A stretch of 64,000 nt of DNA from Candidatus Saccharimonadales bacterium (GTDB taxonomy: Bacteria; Patescibacteriota; Saccharimonadia; Saccharimonadales; EFPC-124): positions 562,659 to 626,658 of the forward strand of contig DATIBO010000006.1 of NCBI GenBank assembly GCA_035457485.1, given 5' to 3'. A program made the translations under genes and the position numbers. Below are positions 4,116 through 17,011 of the stretch, piece by piece (position 1 is the first letter of the stretch; every line of letters starts with the position of its first letter). Under the pieces are notes generated by a model. That model did not search any database, was not told where the DNA came from, and saw only the letters and a list, made by a program, of their open reading frames with translations.

Positions 4116-6191
4116 ATGGCCACAGATTTAAAGAAATTCCGAAACATTGGTATTATCGCGCACATCGATGCGGGTAAAACTACAACTACCGAAGGTATTT
4201 TGTACCGAACCGGTTTGAGTCACAAAATTGGTGCAGTTCACGAAGGTGAAACTACAACCGACTGGATGGAACAAGAACGTGAACGTGGTATCACAATTAC
4301 TTCTGCTGCCGTGACTTGTTTCTGGAAAGACCACAAAATCAACATCATCGACACTCCTGGACACATCGACTTTACTGCAGAAGTTGAGCGTTCCTTGCGC
4401 GTGCTCGACGGTGCTGTAGTTGTATTCGACGGTAAAATGGGCGTAGAAGCTCAAACCGAAACTGTATGGCGCCAGGCCAACAAATACGGTGTGCCTCGTA
4501 TTTGCTTTATTAACAAAATAAACCAAACTGGCGGTGATTTTTACAAATCTCTTGAGAGTATTCATGCTCGCCTAAGCAAACGCGCATTGCCAATTCACTT
4601 GCCAATCGGTTTTGAACAGAGTATTAACGGCGTTGTTGATCTTGTAAGCATGAAGGCATACACCTACAAAGAATTTGCCGACAAAGAGTTGATTGAGGGC
4701 GAGATTCCTGCTGACATGCTTGAAAAAGCTAAAAATGCTCGCACATTGCTCGTAGAAGCTGCCGTTGAAGCAGATGACACACTGTTTGAAAAGTATCTTG
4801 AGGGCGGCGAAGAATCAATTAGTGAAGCCGAACTAAAAGCTGCTATTCGTGCATCTGTTTTGACAGGTGAATTCTACATAGTAACTGGTGGAGACGGTCG
4901 TGGTGTGATCGTAGAAAAAGTTCTTGACCTTGTTAACGACTATTTGCCAAGCCCGCTAGACATTAGCGCTATTTGGGGTACTCACCCTAAAACTGGTGAC
5001 AAAATTGAACGCAAGCCAAGCGCAACCGAACCTATGTCGGCACTTGCTTTTAAAGTTGCAACAGACCCATTCGTTGGTAAATTGATTTTCGTACGTGTTT
5101 ACAGTGGTAAAATTAGCGCCGGTAGCTACATTTTTAACGCGACGACAGGTGAAAAAGAGCGCGTAGGTCGCTTGGTTCGCATGCATGCCGACAAACGAGA
5201 AGACATTACCGAAATCGAAGCTGGTGATATCGCAGCTGTTGTGGGTCTAAAAGATACCACAACCGGTACGACTTTGTGTGATCCAGCCAACCCAATCATT
5301 CTTGAAAGTATTGATTTCCCAGAACCTCCAGTAAGTATTGCGATTGAGCCAAAGACTAAAGCCGACCAAGAGAAAATGGCCCTAGCCCTTCAGCGATTAG
5401 CCGAAGAAGACCCAACTTTCCGTGTTCACACGGATCAAGAAACTGGTCAGACCATTATTAGCGGTATGGGCGAGCTTCACCTTGAGATCATTGTCGATCG
5501 AATGAAGCGTGAGTTTAAGGTTGAAGCAAATATCGGCCAGCCTCAGGTTGCTTACCGTGAAACAATCAAAAAACTTACCGAAATCGAAGGCAAGTACATC
5601 AAGCAATCTGGTGGTCGTGGTCAGTATGGTCACGTATGGCTTAAACTTGAACCAAATGAAGTTGGTAAGGGCTTTGAGTTCATCGATGAGATTAAAGGTG
5701 GTGTGGTTCCTCAGGAATACCGCAACCCTGTTAAAAACGGTATCGAAGAAACTCTTAACGGTGGTGTGATTGCTGGATATCCAGTAGTTGACGTTAAAGC
5801 GACTCTATATGACGGTAGTTATCACGAAGTTGACTCAAGTGAAATGGCCTTTAAAATGGCCGGTGCACTTGCGGCTCGTGAAGGTGTACGCAAAGCCGCT
5901 CCAGTATTACTCGAACCTGTGATGAAGGTTGTAGTTGTTACCCCAGAAGACTTCATGGGTGACGTAATTGGTGGTCTAAACTCTAAACGCGGCCGTATTG
6001 AGTCTATGGTGGACCTTGCTGGTGGCGCTAAAGAGATTACCGCAATTGTTCCTTTGGGCGAAATGTTTGGTTACACAACCGAACTTCGCAGCTCGACTCA
6101 AGGTCGCGCAAGCTCAAGCATGGAGCTAGCTCAGTACGAAGAAGTTCCAAACAACGTCGCTGAAGCAATTATTGCTAAGCGCGCTAAGTAA
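4116..6191 (+). CDS. fusA: Elongation factor G
   Basis: [10 protein letters not shown]1 motif, DTPGH motif, full-length EF-G architecture. Confidence 0.97.
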
Positions 6192-6242
6192 TTAAAGACA
6201 AGCAAGAGTAGGTTAAGACCGGGCTCTTGCTATGCTTTAAAT

Positions 6243-7316
6243 ATGGAAAAAAGTTTAGTTTGGAATTTCAGATCGTCCAGCCATGCCGATTTTGAGCAAA
6301 TTAATAAGGGCGGCCAACACTTAATTTTTGAAGACCCGTACTTTAAGCAGTTAGCTGAAGAATGCGGTATGCCTGATATCCGTCAGGTTCTTAGATTTAA
6401 TTTTCAAGAATACATTCAACGACAGCGTACACTGCCAAGTGAGCGACATTTTGAGGCTGTGTCAGATCTAGCTACGATTCAAAATTATAGGTTTTCTCGC
6501 TTGCGCGAAACATTTGGTAATGATATTCCGGATCAATCCACGGTTGTTAAGCAAGTTTATTTCCGAAAAGAACATCTTGATCAAATCTGGAGCCACTACA
6601 ACGGAATCCCGGAAGGGATGTATCAAACCGCAATGGACCATGTGGGGTGGGCACTAGTAACTTTTCAGGATCAGTTGCGCGATTTGCGCCCTGATGACTT
6701 GGCGTTTCGGATACCTTATGCCGAACGAAACGGTTCGGATAAGGAGTTCTATAGCGAGGTGAACCATCGTTGGTTGATTAACCCGTTTGCCACGCCGACC
6801 GAAGAAGAAATTAGACAGTTTCATTCAGTTCAGCCTAGCGATGAGCTTGTGGAGCTTTTGATCGACTGTGAATCTAACGAACTTCGCAGGAACAAAGCTA
6901 TCGAAGTGATCGACAAGACCATTGGACACGCACTTTTAACTGGTGAACCCATCGACATTAGCGGCAAGGGTAATATTTTTATAAGCAAAGAGGGTGATTT
7001 GTGGGCGCCCGATATTCTATTTCCGATTCCTGAGCCAATTCTAGATTTTATTCCGGAAATTGTACTGAGAATTCAAAACAACTTTGGTCCAATCGCGAAA
7101 GAACTAAACTTTTTACTTAACGGGTTGGGTTTTGTGAGATCTATAAATTATCTTGCAGCACTGTTTAATCGGCCCGAGCGCATTATGCTTTTTGAGAACA
7201 TGGATATTAATCCGCAAACCTGGGATAAAGTTTACGATTTTTTAACAAACTTGAGTACGTATAAACAACTGCATGCTGATACAATGAGCTATCACAAAAC
7301 TAATAGTGACTCTTAA
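6243..7316 (+). CDS. Hypothetical protein (357 aa)
   Basis: Long ORF at background GC. No recognisable motif. Confidence 0.6.
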   Translation: MEKSLVWNFRSSSHADFEQINKGGQHLIFEDPYFKQLAEECGMPDIRQVLRFNFQEYIQRQRTLPSERHFEAVSDLATIQNYRFSRLRETFGNDIPDQSTVVKQVYFRKEHLDQIWSHYNGIPEGMYQTAMDHVGWALVTFQDQLRDLRPDDLAFRIPYAERNGSDKEFYSEVNHRWLINPFATPTEEEIRQFHSVQPSDELVELLIDCESNELRRNKAIEVIDKTIGHALLTGEPIDISGKGNIFISKEGDLWAPDILFPIPEPILDFIPEIVLRIQNNFGPIAKELNFLLNGLGFVRSINYLAALFNRPERIMLFENMDINPQTWDKVYDFLTNLSTYKQLHADTMSYHKTNSDS

Positions 7317-7351
7317 TGCACCCTGTATAATTGTCAAAAATAAGGTTTTTT

Positions 7352-7963
7352 ATGAGTGAAGTACCGAGCTCTAACGAGCGACACAAGATGGAAGTTAGTA
7401 AAGCTCACGAAGCGCTGAATTCGTTGGCAGAGTTAGAATCGCATGAAGGGATGGAAATCGCTGTTCGACTAGCGTCGGTGATTGAGTCCTCGTTTGATTT
7501 GAGCTCACAAGATAAAGTCGCCTCAGCTAGTAAAACAATCGAGCGTTTAGTTCTAGATTATTCGGTAGACGATACGGAGTCGGCTGCGGACAAGTTTTTG
7601 GTGAAGCTGGGGCTGGTTGCAGATGCCGCTTCGGTTGTTTTAGCCGGTAACCAGTCTAAGTTCAACAGAGACCAGCTGGCCGATCTAATGTTTCGTGTGG
7701 TCAAAATTTTCCCTAACAGTCGGGAGTATCGTGATTTTCTAGGTAAGGCCTTGGCGCCTTTTATAATGTTTAGGTGTGAGTATGCGGGAGTGTATGCACA
7801 GGGTAATGATATCGATCAGATGGCTTTGGCCGAGGGCTTACTAGAAGAAGGCGAGTGGTTTTTGAGCCGAATGCGAGAATATGAACTCGGGCCTGCTTCG
7901 CTGCACAACATTCTTAAGAACACGGCCAAAAGCTCGCGCCGCCAAATGCGGGGTAAAAAATAG
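7352..7963 (+). CDS. Hypothetical helical protein (about 203 aa)
   Basis: ATG at 7352 is preceded by TGTATAAT (7324-7331) and TAAGG. The track start at 7331 is a TTG inside the -10 box. Confidence 0.55.
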   Translation: MSEVPSSNERHKMEVSKAHEALNSLAELESHEGMEIAVRLASVIESSFDLSSQDKVASASKTIERLVLDYSVDDTESAADKFLVKLGLVADAASVVLAGNQSKFNRDQLADLMFRVVKIFPNSREYRDFLGKALAPFIMFRCEYAGVYAQGNDIDQMALAEGLLEEGEWFLSRMREYELGPASLHNILKNTAKSSRRQMRGKK

Positions 7964-7972
7964 CTCCACCTC

Positions 7973-8001
7973 TTTACACAAGGAGCTCGTATCTGTATAA
8001 T
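7973..8001 (+). promoter_or_regulatory. Promoter of tuf (TTTACA-17-TATAAT, TGn-extended)
   Basis: Hexamers read directly. Confidence 0.55.
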
Positions 8002-8068
8002 TTGATGCATACGTCGCACGACGCTTTTGTGCACGTGCGAATAAAATAATTTAAGGAGAAATCTACAT

Positions 8069-9253
<1,185 letters not shown>

Positions 9254-9270
9254 TCTTAGTAAACTACGCA

Positions 9271-9305
9271 AAAAGAGTCGCAAGTATGCGGCTCTTTTTG
9301 TTTTG
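9271..9305 (+). terminator. Rho-independent terminator after tuf
   Basis: AAAGAGTCGC / GCGGCTCTTT stem plus T-run. Confidence 0.7.
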
Positions 9306-10290
9306 GGTGAAATAATAAGTTCGGTTAGGCGGGCCCGATCTCTGCGCAGTGGCAGTGATCGGGCCCGCGAACGGACAGGAGGTCAGCAGGTCCGGGCCTC
9401 GGCGTACGGGTAGTTCGTGACGCAGTTGCGGTTGAACGGAACCGGGGCCAGCGACTTGGGGTCGAGGACGCGGTCCGTCCAGGTGAACACGAAGTCGTAG
9501 GTCTTGCTGGTGTCGAACGAGTAGTCGTTGACGTTCGGGGCCCACACGTAGGTCTTGCCGCCGTCCTCGCTCATGTAGTTCATGAACGGGATGACGTTGT
9601 CGCCGGCATAGTAGCGGATCCCCACGACGGTGTTCATCTTGGTGATGGCGCCGTTGACGACGATCGCCGGGGTGGACCGCGGCGCGTCGATCACGACCAG
9701 CCAGCCCTCGCTCGGCATCTCGTTGTTCGAGATGGGGTTCAGGCTGTCCCGGTTGGTGATGAACATGATCTTGCCGGTGCTGAGCGCGTTGTCCACGGCC
9801 AACTGGCCCTTGACGAGTCGGAAGTGCATGGCGCCGTTCTGGCACGGGTTGAGCTTGGTCAGGTCCAGCTTGTTGACGTCGAACTTGATGCCGCTCCGGG
9901 GGTTGCCCGGGTCGCAGTTCTCGAACGCCGCCTTACCGTGGATGTAGTCCAGGTAGGCGACCAGGTTCTGGCGCTGGATCACCGAGGTCTTCGGGTTGCA
10001 GATGGTGGCCATCACCAGGGTGTAGGTGTCGGTCGGCTGGGCCGGCGCCGGGTCGTTGCACCCGTAGTAGGCGTCCACCGCCGGCGAGCTGCTGCTCGTG
10101 GGCGAGGACGTGACGCTCGGGGCGGCACTGGGCGACGTGGCCATGGCGGCCGACGGCGAGGCACTGGGCTTGGTCCACTGCTGGGCGGGCTGGCTCGACT
10201 CGCTGCATCCGGCCGCCACGAGGGCGAGCAGAGTGAGAGCGGTGAGCAGCGCCGTGCGCTTGTTGCGCATGTCTCCTCCAGATGGGAATG
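9306..10290. other. GC-rich segment B (putative foreign DNA) downstream of tuf
   Basis: 60-mer 9421-9480 has 42/60 G+C, against 26/60 for tuf 8101-8160 (hand counts). A 12-bp perfect GC hairpin sits at 9328-9367. Confidence 0.7.
9383..10270 (-). CDS. Secreted lipoprotein (295 aa), GC-rich, Ser/Pro-rich linker, Cys-containing C-terminal domain
   Basis: Signal peptide with lipobox LVAAG|C. GGAGGAG RBS. All other ORFs in this interval look like antisense or shadow ORFs. Confidence 0.75.
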   Translation of the reverse strand: MRNKRTALLTALTLLALVAAGCSESSQPAQQWTKPSASPSAAMATSPSAAPSVTSSPTSSSSPAVDAYYGCNDPAPAQPTDTYTLVMATICNPKTSVIQRQNLVAYLDYIHGKAAFENCDPGNPRSGIKFDVNKLDLTKLNPCQNGAMHFRLVKGQLAVDNALSTGKIMFITNRDSLNPISNNEMPSEGWLVVIDAPRSTPAIVVNGAITKMNTVVGIRYYAGDNVIPFMNYMSEDGGKTYVWAPNVNDYSFDTSKTYDFVFTWTDRVLDPKSLAPVPFNRNCVTNYPYAEARTC

Positions 10291-10390
10291 TCCGTCTATA
10301 CGCCTATGTTGTGGCGTAATAGCGAACACTATCATATAACAAAGTATAAGATAAGTCAATACGATAGTACTTGTGTAATGCAAAATAATA

Positions 10391-10399
10391 TGTTATAAT
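10391..10399 (+). promoter_or_regulatory. Extended -10 (TGTTATAAT) upstream of the sortase gene
   Basis: Read directly, 22 nt upstream of the ATG. Confidence 0.45.
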
Positions 10400-10421
10400 T
10401 TGCACAATAACGTAGGATTAT

Positions 10422-11165
10422 ATGCGCAAGAAGACCCCTGTTAAATCGAGAAAAACCGCTTTTAAAATGCCGAAAATGAATCCTGCCCCCGTTGCCGGTA
10501 TTTTGGTAGCGTTTGCTGCTCTAGCATTTTTTAATGCCCAGTTAATCTCGGCCAGAGTTATGGCCTACGTGGCGCCTGCCGATCTTTCAAACGCTAGCCA
10601 AGAGCTTCACACGTCGAACATGGTCGACCCAGCCGAGACTCGTCTGAGTATCCCAAAAATCTCGGTCGACGCTCCAGTTGTTTACGGAATGGGTAAAGTT
10701 GAAGATTACTACGTCCAAAAGGCGCTCGAAGATGGCGTACTCCACTTTGGTGGCTCGCCAACGCCTGGACAGCCGGGAAACTCAGTTTTTGTCGGCCACT
10801 CTAGTAACCAGCCCTGGGCGCCGGGTGATTATAAGTTTGTATTTATGATGCTAGATAAACTTGAAGTTGGTGACAAGATCTTTTTAACATACAAAGGCAC
10901 CCGCTACACCTATGACGTAACCGAGAAAAAGGTCGTAAAACCTAACGATGTATCAGTGCTAGAAGGCAGTAAAACGCCTACAGCTACTTTTATCACCTGT
11001 ACACCGCTTGGCACAAACACAAATCGTTTAGTAATAAAAGCCAAACTTAGCGATCCAGTCTTTGCTAATGAAGACATGGAGGGCTTAAAGAGAAGCGCTC
11101 CTGAGCTCAACGCAGCTTTGCCCGGCCAAGGCTACTCTACTGTCGAGTCATTGACACAACAATAA
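10422..11165 (+). CDS. Sortase family transpeptidase
   Basis: N-terminal TM anchor. Catalytic His (VFVGHS), TxxTC (TFITCTP) and Arg (NRLVIKA). Confidence 0.85.
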   Translation: MRKKTPVKSRKTAFKMPKMNPAPVAGILVAFAALAFFNAQLISARVMAYVAPADLSNASQELHTSNMVDPAETRLSIPKISVDAPVVYGMGKVEDYYVQKALEDGVLHFGGSPTPGQPGNSVFVGHSSNQPWAPGDYKFVFMMLDKLEVGDKIFLTYKGTRYTYDVTEKKVVKPNDVSVLEGSKTPTATFITCTPLGTNTNRLVIKAKLSDPVFANEDMEGLKRSAPELNAALPGQGYSTVESLTQQ

Positions 11166-11169
11166 TATA

Positions 11170-11206
11170 AAAAATGCGCCGTTTCACAAGTGGCGCATTT
11201 TATTTT
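11170..11206. terminator. Bidirectional terminator between the sortase and GT2 genes
   Basis: AAATGCGCC / GGCGCATTT stem flanked by an A-run and a T-run. Confidence 0.7.
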
Positions 11207-12405
11207 TACTGACCAATCTGGGCCCGACGTTTTACGCCTTCCCATGCTAGTACTTTTTTACCGTGTTTGCTGCGATCACGACCCAAAATCACAACCTCTA
11301 CAAAACACCAGATAAACACAAGTAGGCTTACCCAGCGGTAAATGTATAGGTGTGGGAATGCATTAAAAATATCCCAGCGATTACTGCGCATTGCCGCAAA
11401 GGCGGCTACCACGGCGGCAACTATCACGTCGATCATAAAGGTTGCGGCGATAATCTCTGCAAAGCCGCGTTCGGCGGCAATAATCGGCATGACAACAACA
11501 TAGCTTGTGAACATTGCCAAGTTTAAACCTACTTGGTAACTAAGGTAGGCGTCGAGTTTGCTGATTTTTGTACCAATTTTATGAGTAAATAGGCCTTGCA
11601 ATACACCTTTATTCCAGCGATGAATTTGTTTCACAAAGTCGCGAAAGGTTAATGGGTCTTGAGTGTACGCAACAGCTTCTTCTATAAACTGGATTGTCCC
11701 AAGGTTCTTGCGGTGAATCTGTAAGGTTACGTCGAAATCTTCGGCAAGAGCACCCGTATTAAACGCCACCTGTCTAAAAACGTCCGATCTAAAACAAGAT
11801 GTAGGGCCGGGGATAATCGATATAATTCCAGCTAAATCTTGGAAACGTCGCACAATATCCATACCAATCGCATATTCAACGACGCGGAACTGACCAACAA
11901 TCGAACCTTTTAGACTACGGATGTAACCAGTAGCGGCAGCGTTACTGACTCGCAAGTTTTTACGGAAAACCTTAAAGTAGTTACTAGAAAAAGATCCATC
12001 ACCATCAGCTAAGTGAATCCATTTGTAGCGCTCTACAAGATCAAATTTGCGAGCAGCTTTGGTGAGGGCCAATCCCTTACCGCTACGCTTTACTCGCATT
12101 ACGTTTTCGCGACCAAGCACACTTTTAGCGACCGCACTTGTTTTGTCATTCGAAAAATCATCGACAACGTAAATGTCGCTTGGTTTCATGCCCGCTGCGA
12201 TCGCCGAACGCAAAGTATACTCAAGCACTTGCTCTTCGTTGTGGGCTGAAATTAGCAAACAAAGTGTATTTTTGCGACCACCAGTGACTTGGCGGACGGC
12301 TTGCTCGACCTTGAAAACGCTAAGGTTCTCGGTGCTTATCTTAGGACGACGAGTAGTTTTTACTTTGCGCCTCGGAACTGCTATCTGACGTGACTGATTT
12401 TTCAT
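11206..12405 (-). CDS. Processive family-2 glycosyltransferase (PNAG/chitin/cellulose-synthase-like)
   Basis: DDFSNDKT and DGDGS motifs, Q-x-x-R-W (QIHRW), C-terminal TM helices. Confidence 0.8.
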   Translation of the reverse strand: MKNQSRQIAVPRRKVKTTRRPKISTENLSVFKVEQAVRQVTGGRKNTLCLLISAHNEEQVLEYTLRSAIAAGMKPSDIYVVDDFSNDKTSAVAKSVLGRENVMRVKRSGKGLALTKAARKFDLVERYKWIHLADGDGSFSSNYFKVFRKNLRVSNAAATGYIRSLKGSIVGQFRVVEYAIGMDIVRRFQDLAGIISIIPGPTSCFRSDVFRQVAFNTGALAEDFDVTLQIHRKNLGTIQFIEEAVAYTQDPLTFRDFVKQIHRWNKGVLQGLFTHKIGTKISKLDAYLSYQVGLNLAMFTSYVVVMPIIAAERGFAEIIAATFMIDVIVAAVVAAFAAMRSNRWDIFNAFPHLYIYRWVSLLVFIWCFVEVVILGRDRSKHGKKVLAWEGVKRRAQIGQ

Positions 12406-13301
12406 TATTGTGCCTTCTGCTTATCGTAAGCGTTTAAAGCTTCTTCCATCGTGACTATGCGAATTTGGCTATCCTTAATAGTGGCCATTTGCTCGTCTAA
12501 CTGTTTGGGTGTGACGGCGTAATAATCTTCAGATTCATCTTCGATCTGGTGGTAGATCAATATGATCCACGCATTTTTTTCTTTTGCAGCCTCTATAAAA
12601 CGGATAATTTGGTCGACGGTTGTGGTGCGCCGTATACTGAACGCACTAATTTGGTAGGGGTTAAAATTACTACGCATGTTAAATGATCCGTCATAAAGAG
12701 TGTCAATATCAGCATCAGTATTGCGATGGGAGCGGTAGTATTTTTGAATCTCGTTGATAACCTCTTGGTTCTGGCGGTTAAGTGGTGAAGCAAAATCTTT
12801 GACTTCTTTGCCAACTAACTTCGAGATCGCATCGCGTGACTCTTTAAGTTCAAACTCTAGCTCCTCGTGATTAAGCGAAGTTAGGTCATTATGGCTAACG
12901 GTGTGAGATTGAATATCGTGACCAGCTCGGTGTAGTGAAATAATCTGGTCGCGCGACAAATAATTTAAGAAGTCGAGTGATCCGCTTAAAACGTATTGGG
13001 TTGTGCGAATGCCGTGTTTGTCTAAAATTGGCGCACCTTTGCTGTAAACGCTCTCCCAGCCATCGTCAAACGTAACACTGATCATCGGTTCGTCAAAAAG
13101 CCTTACTTCCCCTGGTTCTGGCTGTAAAGTCTGCAAAGTAATTGTGTGGCGTTGGTCGGCAAAAAATGTATTTTTAACCCAAACGCCTACTGATAATATC
13201 GGCAAAAGTGTAACACAAATAGCAATGGCCGAAAGAACGAACTTGTTAGCTCGCTTTAGTTTTCGGCCGTTGCCTTGTGCTGATTTTTTAGGGCTTACCA
13301 T
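12405..13301 (-). CDS. Polysaccharide deacetylase (NodB/CE4 domain), membrane anchored
   Basis: TFDDG and HTVSH motifs. Stop overlaps the GT2 start. Start placed at ATG 13301; the track start at 13361 would overlap the upstream micro-ORF. Confidence 0.8.
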   Translation of the reverse strand: MVSPKKSAQGNGRKLKRANKFVLSAIAICVTLLPILSVGVWVKNTFFADQRHTITLQTLQPEPGEVRLFDEPMISVTFDDGWESVYSKGAPILDKHGIRTTQYVLSGSLDFLNYLSRDQIISLHRAGHDIQSHTVSHNDLTSLNHEELEFELKESRDAISKLVGKEVKDFASPLNRQNQEVINEIQKYYRSHRNTDADIDTLYDGSFNMRSNFNPYQISAFSIRRTTTVDQIIRFIEAAKEKNAWIILIYHQIEDESEDYYAVTPKQLDEQMATIKDSQIRIVTMEEALNAYDKQKAQ

Positions 13302-13318
13302 ATGCCCGTTGCTGGCTG

Positions 13319-13489
13319 TTAGGCTGTAAACTTGGCGGTGCGAGAATAAATGACGCCCCACACAAGCATTCCTAACGCCATCGCAACAGCAATCTGAACT
13401 GTTACTTCAGATCCTGTGTTTGGTAGAATCGCAACAACTGCTGGAGCCGTTGCAGCCAAAATATGTTGGTCGTTATACATGCCTGCCAT
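13319..13489 (-). CDS. 56-aa micro-protein made of a short N-terminus plus an LPNTG sorting-signal-like C-terminus
   Basis: MAGMYNDQHILAATAPAVVAILPNTGSEVTVQIAVAMALGMLVWGVIYSRTAKFTA. Preceded by a GAGGA RBS and the promoter at 13521-13549. First gene of the deacetylase-GT2 operon. Below the 60-aa cutoff of the ORF track. Confidence 0.55.
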   Translation of the reverse strand: MAGMYNDQHILAATAPAVVAILPNTGSEVTVQIAVAMALGMLVWGVIYSRTAKFTA

Positions 13490-13520
13490 TCCTCTGTAGG
13501 TAAGTTAATAATCTAGATTG

Positions 13521-13549
13521 TTTATACACTTTTGTTATTAAAAAGTCAA
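13521..13549 (-). promoter_or_regulatory. Promoter (TTGACT-17-TATAAA, TGn-extended) for the micro-ORF/deacetylase/GT2 operon
   Basis: Reverse-complement reading. Spacing counted as 17 nt. Confidence 0.55.
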
Positions 13550-13777
13550 GTCTAATATAATCATAAAGTAGTAATGTCAATGCTTATGGTTAGAATTACA
13601 GTAGTGGAGTTAGATCCAAGCGAACGGTGACGAATTATGTTATAAATAGTATTTAAAGTATTAACGCTTTACTTTTTTACCCTGAATAGTTTATAATCAC
13701 GACATAAATTAATCGCAACGACAACTCGCTGGGTTACAAAGTATTCACCAGAGAGGTTACGTTGCACGGAGTATTAA

Positions 13778-14101
13778 ATGACCCCAACCCCAGAAGTAAA
13801 GCAGCGAATTCGTATTCGCCTAAAAGCTTACGACCACAAAGTGATCGACCAATCTGCCAAACAGATTATAGATACAGCACTTCGCACTGGCGCTAGCATC
13901 TCAGGTCCTGTGCCTTTGCCAACTCGCAAAAGCACTTACACAGTAGTAAAAAGCCCGCACGTGTACAAAAAAGGTGGTGAACACTTTGAAATGCGCGTTC
14001 ATAAACGCTTGATCGACATCACAAGCCCGACACCTAAAACAATCGATTCATTGCAAAACCTTAGCTTGCCAGCTGGTTGCGACGCCGAAATTCGAATGTA
14101 G
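13778..14101 (+). CDS. rpsJ: 30S ribosomal protein S10
   Basis: [16 protein letters not shown]... canonical S10. Confidence 0.97.
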
Positions 14102-14119
14102 TCTAGCTCGAAATAAAAA

Positions 14120-14148
14120 ATGCCCTCGACATAGTTGGGGGTATTTTA
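14120..14148 (+). terminator. Terminator-like hairpin plus T-run directly after rpsJ
   Basis: GCCCTC / GGGGGT stem (one G-U pair) followed by TATTTT. Confidence 0.45.
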
Positions 14149-14215
14149 GTGAGGCTCATTGATGCGGCTAGCAAAGTTGCCCACACGATCAATGTAGGTT
14201 AAACTTAAAATACTT

Positions 14216-14485
14216 ATGGCTAAACAAAAACCTCAAAAAAACGAAACCGATAGCATTTACTTTTTAAAACTCGTTCTATATATTTTAGCCGGCTCGTTCT
14301 GGTTGCGTTTTAGTGAACCCTTGCAGATCGGTGACTGGATAATTGGCGCGGTGCCGGTCGGACTAGTAATTGGCTTGATTTTCGCGCATCACGATCATTT
14401 TCAGCTTGACCGCAAAGTTGAATACGCCGTTCTTTTGATTGCAACTATAATTAGTTTCTTTTTGCCAACCGGAATTATTGTATAG
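14216..14485 (+). CDS. Small membrane protein (89 aa)
   Basis: Three hydrophobic segments. No family recognised. Confidence 0.55.
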   Translation: MAKQKPQKNETDSIYFLKLVLYILAGSFWLRFSEPLQIGDWIIGAVPVGLVIGLIFAHHDHFQLDRKVEYAVLLIATIISFFLPTGIIV

Positions 14486-14540
14486 TTTTGTTCGATCGTA
14501 TAAGCTTAAACTAAGTACGTAAACTACTTTGGGGTATTTA

Positions 14541-15860
14541 GTGAAGCAAAAAACCGACCTACAAAAGTATCAGCAAGAGATTGAAAGACAGCTAAATAGT
14601 ATTGCGCCCGTGTTTGCTAAGGCAGCGATTGGGGATTTTTCGCAGAATGTAAAGATCCCGCGCCATAAAAGCGAGCTGACGGAATTTTTTATTGGTGTGC
14701 AGCTTATTCTCAGTGCGATTCGAGACAAAATAAGTCAACTTGAAACTTCTGTTAAGGACCTTAAAGCCGCTAACAAACTTATCGAAAACGAAAAAACGCG
14801 CGTCGAAGCGATCTTAAACAGTTTAGGTGATGGTCTAATCACCTTTAGTAAATCTGGCCGCACAACGTTTGTTAATGACATGGCGACGAAAATGATTGGC
14901 CCTAATGCCAGTAAGCCCGGGCAAGACATAAATAAGCTTCTAGCTTTAAAACATCGAACCGGACTGGATATTAGCGAGTCGGAGAACCCGTTTAAGATTG
15001 CACTGGCTAAAAAGAAACAGGTCACCTCGAGGCTAAATATAGGAACGCCGTACTATTTTGTTAACGCCGACAATGTGACAATTAGGATTGCATTAACCAT
15101 AACGCCGATCAGACTAGATCACTCGTTTTCGGGTGCAGTAGTTATTTTTAGAGATATAACAGATGAAGCGAATGCTGACCGCGCTAAAAGCGAAATTGTT
15201 TCACTAGCGTCACATCAGCTCAGAACGCCGCTCACAACTGTTAGATGGTATATAAACGAATTAGTAAAACATAGTTTGACACCAAAGAAGCGTACGCAGT
15301 ACTTGGCGCAGATCCAGGCTTCCAACCAGCGCATGATTGACCTTGTAGAGCACTTGTTAAACGTGTCTCGGATCGAACTCGGCACGCTCTCGCTTGATAT
15401 TGAACCTGTTAACCTAACTGAGCAAGTCGACGGCGTCATAGAAGATTTGACTGTGCGGATCAAAGAAAAGAATCTAAAAATCATTAAAAATTTTGAAAAC
15501 GCACCCGCCAAAGTTTACGCCGACAAAGATAGTCTGCGTATTATACTGCAAAATTTAATTTCTAACGCCGAGGAATATTCTAATGAAAATTCATCAATAG
15601 AAATAACTGTGACCAAACAAGATAAGCACGCGCTTGTAAAGGTAGCTGACAAAGGTTGCGGAATTCCCGCCGATCAGCAATACCACATTTTTACTAAGCT
15701 TTTTAGAGCAACCAATGCCAACAATATGTCCACGACCGGCTCGGGGTTGGGTCTGTATATCTCAAAAGCGCTGATTGAGCAGATGAAAGGTAAGATCTGG
15801 TTTACCTCTAAAGAAGGCGTGGGGACAACGATGTTTATAACGATACCGTTAAAAAAGTAA
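14541..15860 (+). CDS. Cytoplasmic PAS-domain sensor histidine kinase
   Basis: H-box SHQLRTPLT and G2 box GSGLGLYISK; no TM segment. GTG at 14541 follows GGGG, with an alternative TTG at 14529. Confidence 0.85.
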   Translation: MKQKTDLQKYQQEIERQLNSIAPVFAKAAIGDFSQNVKIPRHKSELTEFFIGVQLILSAIRDKISQLETSVKDLKAANKLIENEKTRVEAILNSLGDGLITFSKSGRTTFVNDMATKMIGPNASKPGQDINKLLALKHRTGLDISESENPFKIALAKKKQVTSRLNIGTPYYFVNADNVTIRIALTITPIRLDHSFSGAVVIFRDITDEANADRAKSEIVSLASHQLRTPLTTVRWYINELVKHSLTPKKRTQYLAQIQASNQRMIDLVEHLLNVSRIELGTLSLDIEPVNLTEQVDGVIEDLTVRIKEKNLKIIKNFENAPAKVYADKDSLRIILQNLISNAEEYSNENSSIEITVTKQDKHALVKVADKGCGIPADQQYHIFTKLFRATNANNMSTTGSGLGLYISKALIEQMKGKIWFTSKEGVGTTMFITIPLKK

Positions 15861-15869
15861 GGAGTAATT

Positions 15870-16241
15870 ATGGCTAAAAAAATACTGATCATTGAGGACG
15901 AAAAACCGTTGGCAAACATGCTGGCGACAAAACTGCATGACGAAGGCTATGAAACAGATGTGGCTTTTGATGGCGAGCAGGGGTTAAAAAGAGCTTTGGA
16001 GTGGGATCCTAACCTGGTCTTATTAGACCTCGTAATGCCCAAAATGGATGGCATGACAATGTTGCGCCGTTTGCGCGACGACGATAAAGGCAAAAACCTA
16101 CATGTCATTCTACTTACTAACCTTAGTGATACATCCAAAGTTTATGAAGCGGTAACGTTGGGAGTTAAAGACTATTTAGTCAAAACCAACTGGGATCTTG
16201 ATGAGATTATCGAGGAAATTAAGAGTAAAATAGAGGAATAG
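15870..16241 (+). CDS. Single-domain (CheY-like) response regulator
   Basis: Receiver-domain motifs (IIEDE, LLDLVMPKMDG, conserved K). No output domain. Confidence 0.85.
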   Translation: MAKKILIIEDEKPLANMLATKLHDEGYETDVAFDGEQGLKRALEWDPNLVLLDLVMPKMDGMTMLRRLRDDDKGKNLHVILLTNLSDTSKVYEAVTLGVKDYLVKTNWDLDEIIEEIKSKIEE

Positions 16242-16261
16242 TACGACAAAGTTTTTAACTA

Positions 16262-16291
16262 TTGACTCTCAGAGGTGGTATCTGTTATACT
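16262..16291 (+). promoter_or_regulatory. Promoter of rplC and downstream genes (TTGACT-18-TATACT), followed by a roughly 100-nt structured leader
   Basis: Hexamers read directly. The leader contains a CTTGGTA...TACCAAG helix (16340-16377). Confidence 0.5.
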
Positions 16292-16396
16292 ACCCGATGT
16301 AACTTTCTATCAAGATTAAATTTAAGAAGTCTTGGTACGCTTGCAGGTCCGGGAACGGAAACCGCTAGATACCAAGATTTTCTAATGGGAGAACGC

Positions 16397-17011
16397 ATGA
16401 AAGCGCTACTCGGTACCAAAATCGGTATGACCCAGATCCTTCAGGAGGATGGTGTTGCTGTTCCAGTAACTATCATTCAAGCTGGCCCATGTACTGTCAC
16501 TCAGGTGAAGTCCGTAGAAAAAGACGGATACAGCGCAGTACAGATTGGGTACGGACAGGGTAAGAACCTGAGCAATGCCACAAAAGGCCACGTAAAAGCG
16601 GCCAACGCAAACCCTAATCATTTGCGCGAAGTTCGCGTTGACGAATTGCCAGAAGGCGTTACTGTAGGTTCTAACCTAGATGTAACAACCTTTGAAGTTG
16701 GCGAACAAGTTGACGTAACTGGTACGAGCAAAGGTAAAGGTTTTGCGGGAAACATTAAGCGTCACAACTTTAACGCACAACCACGCAGCCACGGTTCAAA
16801 AGCTTATGCTCGCCGCCCTGGTTCAATCGGTTCAATGTACCCACAACGTGTGTTCAAAGGTAAAAAGATGGCCGGCCGAATGGGCGGTGATCAGGTTACT
16901 GTTAAGAACCTCGAAATTGCATTGATCGATGTAGAGCGTAATCTTATTGGCGTTAAAGGTGCAATCCCAGGCCCTCGTCGCGGTCTCGTGATGATTGGAG
17001 GTACCAAATAA
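16397..17011 (+). CDS. rplC: 50S ribosomal protein L3
   Basis: MKALLGTKIGMTQ is the canonical L3 start, after a GGGAGA RBS. The track ORF from 16262 reads through the promoter and leader. Confidence 0.95.
   Translation: MKALLGTKIGMTQILQEDGVAVPVTIIQAGPCTVTQVKSVEKDGYSAVQIGYGQGKNLSNATKGHVKAANANPNHLREVRVDELPEGVTVGSNLDVTTFEVGEQVDVTGTSKGKGFAGNIKRHNFNAQPRSHGSKAYARRPGSIGSMYPQRVFKGKKMAGRMGGDQVTVKNLEIALIDVERNLIGVKGAIPGPRRGLVMIGGTK

Follow-up and report, generated by a model that had tools for sequence, protein, structure and literature searches.

We describe a conserved gene module of Saccharimonadia (TM7) built around a microprotein that consists of little more than a sortase signal of the LPXTG type. 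It was analysed in a stretch of 64,000 nt (the window) from a metagenome-assembled genome of Candidatus Saccharimonadales, and all positions given below are those of the whole stretch. Comparison of sequences establishes that this passenger-less LPXTG microprotein is kept together with a membrane glycosyltransferase of family 2 (GT2) resembling hyaluronan synthase (HAS) and chitin synthase, usually with a polysaccharide deacetylase of carbohydrate esterase family 4 (CE4), and usually with a dedicated sortase. With moderate confidence we favour the explanation that the microprotein is a dedicated substrate of the neighbouring sortase, one without any passenger, and at the same time a membrane partner of the GT2. 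The microprotein is conserved in hundreds of Saccharimonadia genomes and points to an undescribed link between sortases and polysaccharide synthesis; a literature search, incomplete and including sortases and LPXTG proteins, Saccharibacteria, and GT2 and CE4 enzymes, found no published description of the microprotein or of the cassette. The parts of the system are familiar, and it is the architecture and the implied coupling that are unfamiliar. The features of the module in the window are the following.

13490-13494, minus strand: Shine-Dalgarno sequence GAGGA, 9 nt upstream of the ATG at 13480.
13319-13480, minus strand: microprotein gene, 53 codons and a stop, encoding MYNDQHILAATAPAVVAILPNTGSEVTVQIAVAMALGMLVWGVIYSRTAKFTA (NCBI HSE29574.1), with a TIGR01167 match above cutoff and a ratio of nonsynonymous to synonymous substitution rates (dN/dS) of 0.09-0.30.
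13427-13480, minus strand: N-terminal tail of the microprotein, residues 1-18, defined by the family alignment and disordered in the AlphaFold2 (AF2) model.
13412-13426, minus strand: LPNTG sortase motif, residues 19-23, from the alignment of 108 members; the peptide around it is PAVVAILPNTGSEVT.
13322-13411, minus strand: predicted transmembrane (TM) helix and short basic tail, residues 24-53, from the AF2 model and per-position conservation.
12405-13301, minus strand: CE4 polysaccharide deacetylase, 298 residues, with an N-terminal signal-anchor and the motifs TFDDG and HTVSH (PF01522, E=4.1e-24).
11206-12405, minus strand: membrane GT2 synthase, 399 residues, with the motifs DD, DGD, ED and QIHRW and three C-terminal TM helices.
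10422-11165, plus strand: sortase, 247 residues, with an N-terminal TM anchor and the motifs FVGHS, TCTP and NRLVI (PF04203, E=4.5e-27).

The microprotein consists of an 18-residue tail, the LPNTG motif, a hydrophobic helix and the C-terminal tail SRTAKFTA, and its interpretation as a cell-wall sorting signal, proposed in an earlier note on this DNA, is borne out by the LPXTG_anchor model TIGR01167, which it matches with 18.6 bits against a cutoff of 15.9. Among 108 aligned members of the family, L19, P20, T22, G23, W41 and G42 are invariant, and M1, N21 (98 of 108), A31, G37, L38 and Y45 are conserved in at least 90%. The motif is LPNTG in 117 of 138 unique members, the other forms being LPSTG, LPVTG, LPKTG, LPDTG, LPQTG and LPLTG, with LPxAG in two. 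The tail in front of it has a median length of 21 residues in the family (range 16-27; 18 in the window protein), is composed to about 80% of Ala, Thr, Val, Gly and Ser with 19% Thr, carries a net charge of -1 to +1, and begins with the conserved motif M[Y/S]GxGxVLGA[T/S]. The hydrophobic segment has a family median of 2.2 for the maximum 19-residue Kyte-Doolittle hydropathy, and AF2, run on the 108-sequence alignment, models it as a single helix spanning residues 24-52, with a core confidence score (pLDDT) above 90, preceded by a disordered tail with pLDDT of about 50-55. To judge from the alignment, this helix is unusually conserved, beyond what would be expected of a generic anchor. Neither an N-terminal Sec signal peptide nor a passenger domain is present in the microprotein (by Pfam, and with only 18 residues before the motif); Pfam gives no match for it at all, NCBIfam gives TIGR01167 only, and no homology to IcaD or PgaD was found. 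The 64-kb window holds no other credible sorting signal, and no other LPXTG protein was found within 5 kb at about 50 loci. Two further ideas about the microprotein were dropped: a helical hairpin with the N-terminus inside is unsupported, the tail being short, its hydropathy borderline (1.48) and AF2 giving no second helix, and for pilin-like polymerisation there is no conserved Lys in the tail, where K, R, Q and H interchange and the window protein has none.

The reading frame with its LPNTG is present as the earlier note had described it, at 13319-13489 on the minus strand, where the first ATG opens a protein of 56 residues (MAGMYNDQHILAATAPAVVAILPNTGSEVTVQIAVAMALGMLVWGVIYSRTAKFTA); this part of the description stands, and the start has to be moved. 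Translation almost certainly begins at the second ATG (13480), which gives 53 residues. This assignment follows from the position of the GAGGA sequence, 9 nt from the second ATG as against 0 nt from the first; from the lack of conservation of the first ATG, which is ATA in the orthologue at locus L006; and from the fact that most orthologues begin with MY and that NCBI also calls a protein of 53 residues (HSE29574.1, on an 889-kb contig). Besides the orthologues starting with MY there are a large subgroup with MSG and a few with one extra residue before the Tyr, and GGAG- or GAGG-like Shine-Dalgarno sequences lie 5-10 nt upstream of the MY start. The frame is thus provided with a translation signal. 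The earlier note had also considered that the CE4 gene might begin at the GTG at 13361, inside the micro-ORF; this is ruled out, as it starts, like its orthologues, with the ATG at 13301 and does not overlap the micro-ORF.

The dN/dS values of 0.09-0.30 were obtained against five orthologues, with synonymous sites near saturation, and on this comparative ground the micro-ORF is a real gene under purifying selection. A word-index homology search with the single microprotein as query returned only the protein itself, and an exhaustive HMMER search of 1.8 billion representatives gave 14 matches with E up to 1e-3, of which 12 are 51-77 residues long (mostly 51-60) and the other two 2056 and 611 residues. 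A profile built from 36 members then matched at least 222 clusters (90% identity), nearly all of which measure 49-60 residues; these homologues come from Saccharimonadales or Saccharibacteria, and the only names they bear are 'LPXTG-motif cell wall-anchored protein' and 'hypothetical'. That the protein might be nonfunctional, either a decayed remnant of a surface protein or the leader peptide of an upstream open reading frame (ORF), as its very small size, the absence of a domain and its first place in the operon of the window could suggest, is effectively refuted by these values, by the constant size across the at least 222 clusters, and, for the leader peptide, by a divergent group of loci (clade II, described below) in which the microprotein gene lies downstream of the GT2 gene.

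Conservation of the gene arrangement was assessed on contigs carrying homologues of the GT2 and on those found by a scan of metagenome contigs with the GT2 alignment (53 loci); a hidden Markov model of the microprotein and the CE4, GT2 and sortase proteins of the window served as queries against the six-frame ORFs of every locus. A scan of genome contigs with the single GT2 had yielded GT2s of Clostridia, Pseudomonas and other organisms, all of them distant and none orthologous. Counts refer to non-redundant GT2 orthologues for which at least 1250 nt of upstream or at least 900 nt of downstream DNA was available. The micro-ORF stands on the same strand just before the CE4-GT2 pair in all 26 loci with sufficient upstream sequence, and 26 of the 28 loci with sufficient downstream sequence have a sortase no more than 3 kb away, directly adjacent to the GT2 in 19 of them; this sortase is mostly convergent, as in the window, and in L010 and L011 it follows the GT2 gene co-directionally. 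The reverse approach, starting from five microprotein matches picked regardless of context, found a GT2 adjoining all five and a sortase in four. The genes that flank the cassette vary (ribosomal proteins in the window and L007, uvrB and gatCAB in L008, cysS in L010, trehalase in L012), which suggests that it travels as a unit. At L007, which is the nearest relative by synteny, four genes separate GT2 and sortase (6240-8519), one of them AraC-like, two of the glyoxalase family and one for DNA-alkylation repair, so this junction tolerates insertions.

A CE4 gene is adjacent in 43 loci, and the arrangement is not uniform. In clade II (L014/15, L056, L057, L060, L061 and L068), where the GT2s are about 41-44% identical to that of the window, the gene order is GT2, microprotein and a large CE4, or GT2, CE4, a glycoside hydrolase of family 6 (GH6) and microprotein, and the motif is LPVTG or LPQTG. 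In L054 (733-2048) and L072 (409-2548) the microprotein is followed directly by the GT2 with no CE4, and in L072 a convergent sortase comes next. From these two kinds of loci, the GT2 alone emerges as a constant partner of the microprotein; a sortase and a CE4 are often present but dispensable as immediate neighbours. L072 is a 12-kb contig from a bin labelled Polaromonas sp., which is probably mis-binned.

The earlier note had offered two interpretations of the micro-ORF, and both can now be judged on its retention, together with that of the LPNTG motif, in related genomes. For the first, that of a minimal sortase substrate, the invariant LPxTG and the syntenic sortase provide strong comparative support, and together they exclude a coincidental LPNTG. 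The second, a small membrane subunit of the synthase analogous to IcaD or PgaD, survives in so far as a small synthase partner is plausible, given the conserved helix and the constant GT2; the coincidental LPNTG and the relation to IcaD or PgaD that went with it do not. Since the helix is unusually conserved and the GT2 is the universal neighbour, a physical association of the microprotein with the synthase is likely on the sequence evidence.

The GT2 with its QIHRW motif, as reported earlier, was recovered by PF13632, PF13641 and PF00535. Its residues D83, D134, D136, E222, D223, Q260, R263 and W264 do not vary among 116 homologues, and the AF2 model based on these homologues (pLDDT 90.8) shows a GT-A domain with interface helices; the TM helices number only three, all of them C-terminal (283-313, 315-341 and 350-373). 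A Foldseek search of this model against the PDB placed HAS first (8smn, 7sp9, 8sne; TM-score 0.64-0.70) and chitin synthases (Chs1) and BcsA next, the best matches having E=1e-14 to 1e-9. Going by the model, the GT2 is a processive-type membrane synthase of the HAS/chitin-synthase kind. With Class I HAS and chitin synthases (8smn, 7sp9, 8sne, 8k3p) it shares the fold (best matches, TM-score 0.60-0.70) and the D, DxD, ED and QxxRW motifs, whereas sequence identity is 13-16% and the three TM helices, none of them N-terminal, contrast with six in HAS; the enzyme may therefore need helices from partner proteins. The homologues P0015, P0025 and P0037 (607-611 residues) and P0081 (523 residues) exceed the usual 350-420 residues and may be fusions, for example with CE4.

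The CE4 with the Asp-His-His motifs TFDDG and HTVSH, also noticed before, scores 85.3 bits against the PF01522 cutoff of 23.1. A synthase-deacetylase pair for poly-N-acetylglucosamine (PNAG) or a chitin-like polymer had been proposed; the first half of this proposal is disfavoured, as the GT2 reaches only 83.4 bits with the PgaC_IcaA model TIGR03937, far below its cutoff of 422.3, and the second half is favoured by the fold of the GT2 and by the company it keeps. GH6 genes are linked to the cassette in L056 (7567-8745, in the clade II order), in L011 (2671-3753, upstream) and in L014 (2589-3428, nearby), a GH18 gene is a neighbour in L069, and a GH46 chitosanase and a GT2 bearing CBM_5_12 are neighbours in L071. 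The recurrence of GH6, GH18 and GH46 neighbours, together with the CE4, leads us to favour, by analogy, a beta-1,4-linked, partly deacetylated chitin- or chitosan-like product rather than beta-1,6-linked PNAG. The GH6 linkage recalls the cslA-glxA-cslZ locus of Streptomyces, where cslZ is a GH6. Besides the cassette enzyme, a second large secreted CE4 protein of 580-850 residues with no sorting signal recurs close to the cassette, its gene lying on the other strand, in L012, L013, L018, L021, L023, L029, L033, L035, L037, L044, L047, L052 and L069; it carries Big_7 in L013 (8114-10444) and fn3 and dockerin domains in L069.

The sortase, found about 2.15 kb from the micro-ORF and convergent with the GT2 gene in agreement with the earlier estimate of about 2.2 kb, scores 94.7 bits with PF04203 (cutoff 26.6) and 70.3 bits with TIGR01076 (cutoff 39.35), and its catalytic His (FVGHS), Cys (TCTP) and Arg (NRLVI) align with those of the class C sortase 8t28. 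None of the NCBIfam models for sortase classes A-F (NF0337xx) is matched above cutoff, the best being class C with 77 against 160 bits and classes D, E and F scoring lower. In both the CE4 and the sortase a single TM segment comes after a basic N-terminus, and by the positive-inside rule their catalytic domains should face outward, where LPNTG would lie, if these predictions of topology hold. Two sortase genes stand in tandem or close together beside the GT2 in L019 (2425-3993) and L059 (818-3472).

The sequence of events that we propose is as follows. The microprotein, CE4 and GT2 genes follow one another with 17 nt between the micro-ORF stop and the CE4 start and with a 1-nt overlap between the CE4 stop and the GT2 start, and would be co-transcribed and translationally coupled. 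The microprotein would enter the membrane through the one helix at its C-terminal end, its basic tail remaining inside, and the tail of about 20 nearly uncharged residues, together with LPNTG, would come to the outer face, as the positive-inside rule and insertion of the YidC type would predict; short, nearly uncharged N-terminal tails can insert by this route, an example being the Pf3 coat protein. The conserved face of the helix (A31, G37, L38, W41, G42, Y45) might then dock on the three-helix TM bundle of the GT2. The GT2, by homology and in view of the GH6, GH18 and GH46 neighbours, would make and extrude a beta-1,4-linked chain of the N-acetylglucosamine (GlcNAc) type, which the membrane-anchored CE4 would, on the same grounds, partly deacetylate outside. 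The sortase would cleave LPNT|G and transfer the 22-residue peptide to an amine, most likely that of lipid II or peptidoglycan, and the TM stub would remain with the synthase. As a result, the wall would carry a short conserved peptide at the exit of the glycan; that this ties the glycan or the synthase to the wall is speculative.

Several observations weigh against this explanation. A wall-linked peptide, once cleaved, is no longer joined to the helix, and simple tethering of the synthase does not follow. Export of the N-terminal tail is only assumed, given the absence of a Sec signal. The conserved TM positions share one helical face, and the test for their periodicity is marginal (p ~0.05). 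In clade II no sortase was found within 5 kb (L014, L056, L057, L060, L061, L068). Finally, the cassette is apparently absent from Southlakia epibionticum, the one Saccharibacterium for which transposon-sequencing data exist, since no equivalent was found in its annotation table (PMC10633639). The essential exopolysaccharide genes SEML1_0081-0083, reported by transposon sequencing in that study, were considered as an equivalent and rejected, since they belong to a pathway of the Wzy/Wzx type (PMC10633639). In the same study, SEML1_0327, one of the two sortases of this species, and the adjacent PEGA-domain protein SEML1_0326 were scored essential, and disruption of a second sortase, SEML1_0711 of class E, gave a growth advantage (PMC10633639). 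These scores suggest that sortase biology matters in cultivated Saccharibacteria, though the cassette seems to be absent there.

A different answer to the question of the missing passenger is that the passenger is the polysaccharide itself, so that a covalent conjugate of peptide and glycan is formed, either by ligation to the amine of glucosamine (GlcN) or by a glycan-bearing tail that the sortase then fixes to peptidoglycan. We entertain this only tentatively; if true, it would mean a glycan-anchoring route not known before and a new natural sortase reaction or substrate class.

The second of these routes appears unlikely to us. In it, the glycan would be primed on the peptide or attached to it at the GT2, through the hydroxyl of a Tyr, Ser or Thr at position 2-3 or through the Thr-rich tail; the tail of small residues would emerge with the chain, and the sortase would anchor the conjugate. 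This route would explain why a passenger domain is unneeded, and it agrees with the residues at position 2, which is Tyr in 63, Ser in 42 and Thr in 2 of the 108 members, with the composition of the tail, and with the GT2 as universal neighbour, including the loci L054 and L072 that have no CE4 and the loci with no adjacent sortase. Against this, priming would require the N-terminus of the tail to reach the cytoplasmic active site, and AF2 gives the tail no structure; the cassette has no protein glycosyltransferase and no enzyme of the LytR-CpsA-Psr (LCP) family; and we know of no GT2 of the HAS, chitin-synthase or cellulose-synthase type that uses a peptide primer. A surface glycoprotein of Actinomyces oris is reportedly glycosylated by an LCP enzyme before it is anchored, and is thus likewise a sortase substrate tied to glycan attachment, of normal size and secreted.

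The first route, which we consider quite unlikely, would make the sortase a peptide-polysaccharide ligase comparable in its logic to NodABC: the GlcN amine exposed by the CE4 would serve as nucleophile, and the 22-residue, moderately hydrophobic peptide, amide-linked to the glycan, would act as its anchor in membrane or wall. The tail is indeed moderately hydrophobic (median maximum 15-residue Kyte-Doolittle value 1.48), the four genes would all be needed and would suffice without a further enzyme, a CE4 adjoins in the 43 loci mentioned above, and the predicted topologies place the CE4 and sortase domains and LPNTG outside the membrane. Sortase A accepts amino sugars in vitro (the literature search found no source for this); however, no natural sortase is known to use a sugar amine, and the C2 amine of GlcN is hindered. 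The distribution of the genes also disagrees with this route, as cassettes with no CE4 exist (L054, L072) and clade II has a CE4 and no adjacent sortase. The resemblance to NodC/NodB/NodA, namely a compact GT2 paired with a CE4 and an acyl-transfer enzyme that could act on the freed amine, is one of analogy only: the NodB model TIGR04243 gives 33.6 bits against a cutoff of 240, the NodC model has no match at E <0.1, the CE4 and sortase are predicted to be extracytoplasmic, and the acyl donor would be a peptide and not a fatty acid.

It is improbable, in our estimate, that the microprotein acts as a synthase subunit only, similar to IcaD or PgaD, with an LPNTG that is structural or used for docking and never cleaved and with a sortase that is adjacent on account of some other shared function. 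The highly conserved TM helix, the constancy of the GT2 with only three TM helices of its own, and clade II with no adjacent sortase would fit such a role. It is contradicted by L, P, T and G being invariant at the spacing of a sorting signal, with a TM segment and basic tail behind them and a TIGR01167 score above cutoff, and by a sortase that is syntenic in 26 of 28 loci with no other substrate nearby. IcaD and PgaD resemble the microprotein in being tiny TM proteins whose genes share an operon with those for a membrane GT2 and a CE4 deacetylase; in contrast to them it shows no sequence relation, has one TM helix instead of two and possesses the invariant sortase motif. The GT2 differs likewise from IcaA and PgaC, with its low score (83 against 422 bits) and a fold closest to HAS and chitin synthase.

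Returning to the microprotein as sortase substrate and synthase partner, the canonical LPXTG/sortase systems (TIGR01167, PF04203/TIGR01076) share with it the motif, here LPNTG, the hydrophobic helix, the basic tail and a sortase with catalytic His, Cys and Arg, whereas the microprotein family lacks a Sec signal peptide and a passenger, has 16-27 residues before the motif and a conserved TM segment, and is served by a sortase that reaches no class A-F cutoff. A conceptual parallel is found in the PEP-CTERM/exosortase (EpsH/XrtA) system, which is tied to exopolysaccharide loci (PMC1569441). In both, a C-terminal signal and a dedicated enzyme are tied to polysaccharide genes, and many PEP-CTERM substrates are small, of low complexity and rich in Thr, Ser, Gly and Ala; at the same time, the signals and enzymes are unrelated (LPXTG and a cysteine transpeptidase versus PEP-CTERM and a polytopic exosortase), and the host here is a monoderm bacterium of the candidate phyla radiation with one substrate per cassette.

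Sortases are usually understood to fix folded surface proteins or pilins, and here, in a large uncultivated lineage, the only nearby substrate lacks a passenger and is inseparable from an enzyme resembling HAS and chitin synthase. If the peptide should prove to be a covalent handle of the glycan or a cleavable coupling subunit, it would represent a new principle of envelope building in monoderm bacteria, and it would bear on how the ultrasmall cells of these epibionts of Actinobacteria build the surface that contacts the host. The system is small, with four genes and a 53-residue peptide, and the microprotein family is of practical value for annotation.

Two regulatory elements accompany the operon in the window.

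13521-13549, minus strand: promoter-like sequence TTGACT-17-TATAAA, upstream of the micro-ORF, read from the sequence by its resemblance to the consensus.
11171-11201, no strand assigned: hairpin with a 14-bp stem and a T-run, a probable bidirectional terminator between the convergent GT2 and sortase genes.

The first of them had been called a good promoter; the sequence is there as described, and the name should be taken as resemblance to the consensus, sites of this kind being no commoner than in shuffled sequence (8 in the region versus 6.1 +/- 2.2 in shuffles, the region being AT-rich). The rule of the promoter scan demands T at position 6 of the -10 hexamer, which excludes TATAAA, so this site was not listed by it. 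No riboswitch or other RNA family was found in or around the operon, the sole match being a sub-threshold small RNA at the terminator. The gap between the GT2 and sortase genes measures 40 nt, and a six-frame ORF search found one sortase, one GT2 and one CE4 in the window.

The cassette is inserted in the normally contiguous str/S10 ribosomal-protein region (4116-17011), and L007 is arranged alike. The order is fusA (4116-6191), ORFs of unknown function at 6243-7316 and 7331-7963, tuf (8069-9253), an island of high G+C content, and then the sortase, GT2, CE4 and microprotein genes. The island (9200-10400) has a G+C fraction of 0.60-0.68 against about 0.44 around it, and coincides with an ORF of 295 residues (9383-10270, minus strand) that has a signal peptide of the lipoprotein type (…LALVAAGC…) and no Pfam match; lying between tuf and the sortase, it looks horizontally acquired. 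Beyond the microprotein come rpsJ (13778-14101), a membrane ORF of 89 residues (14216-14485) and a histidine kinase (14529-15860), followed by a response regulator (15870-16241) and rplC (~16385-17011). At other loci, a fusion of about 507 residues that joins HTH_3 to an EPSP-synthase/MurA-like domain adjoins the cassette nine times (for example L013 10558-11281, L030 7088-8623 and L069 8155-9681), and an unannotated protein of about 300 residues, which has no Pfam match, recurs in 10 loci (for example L023 6748-7701).

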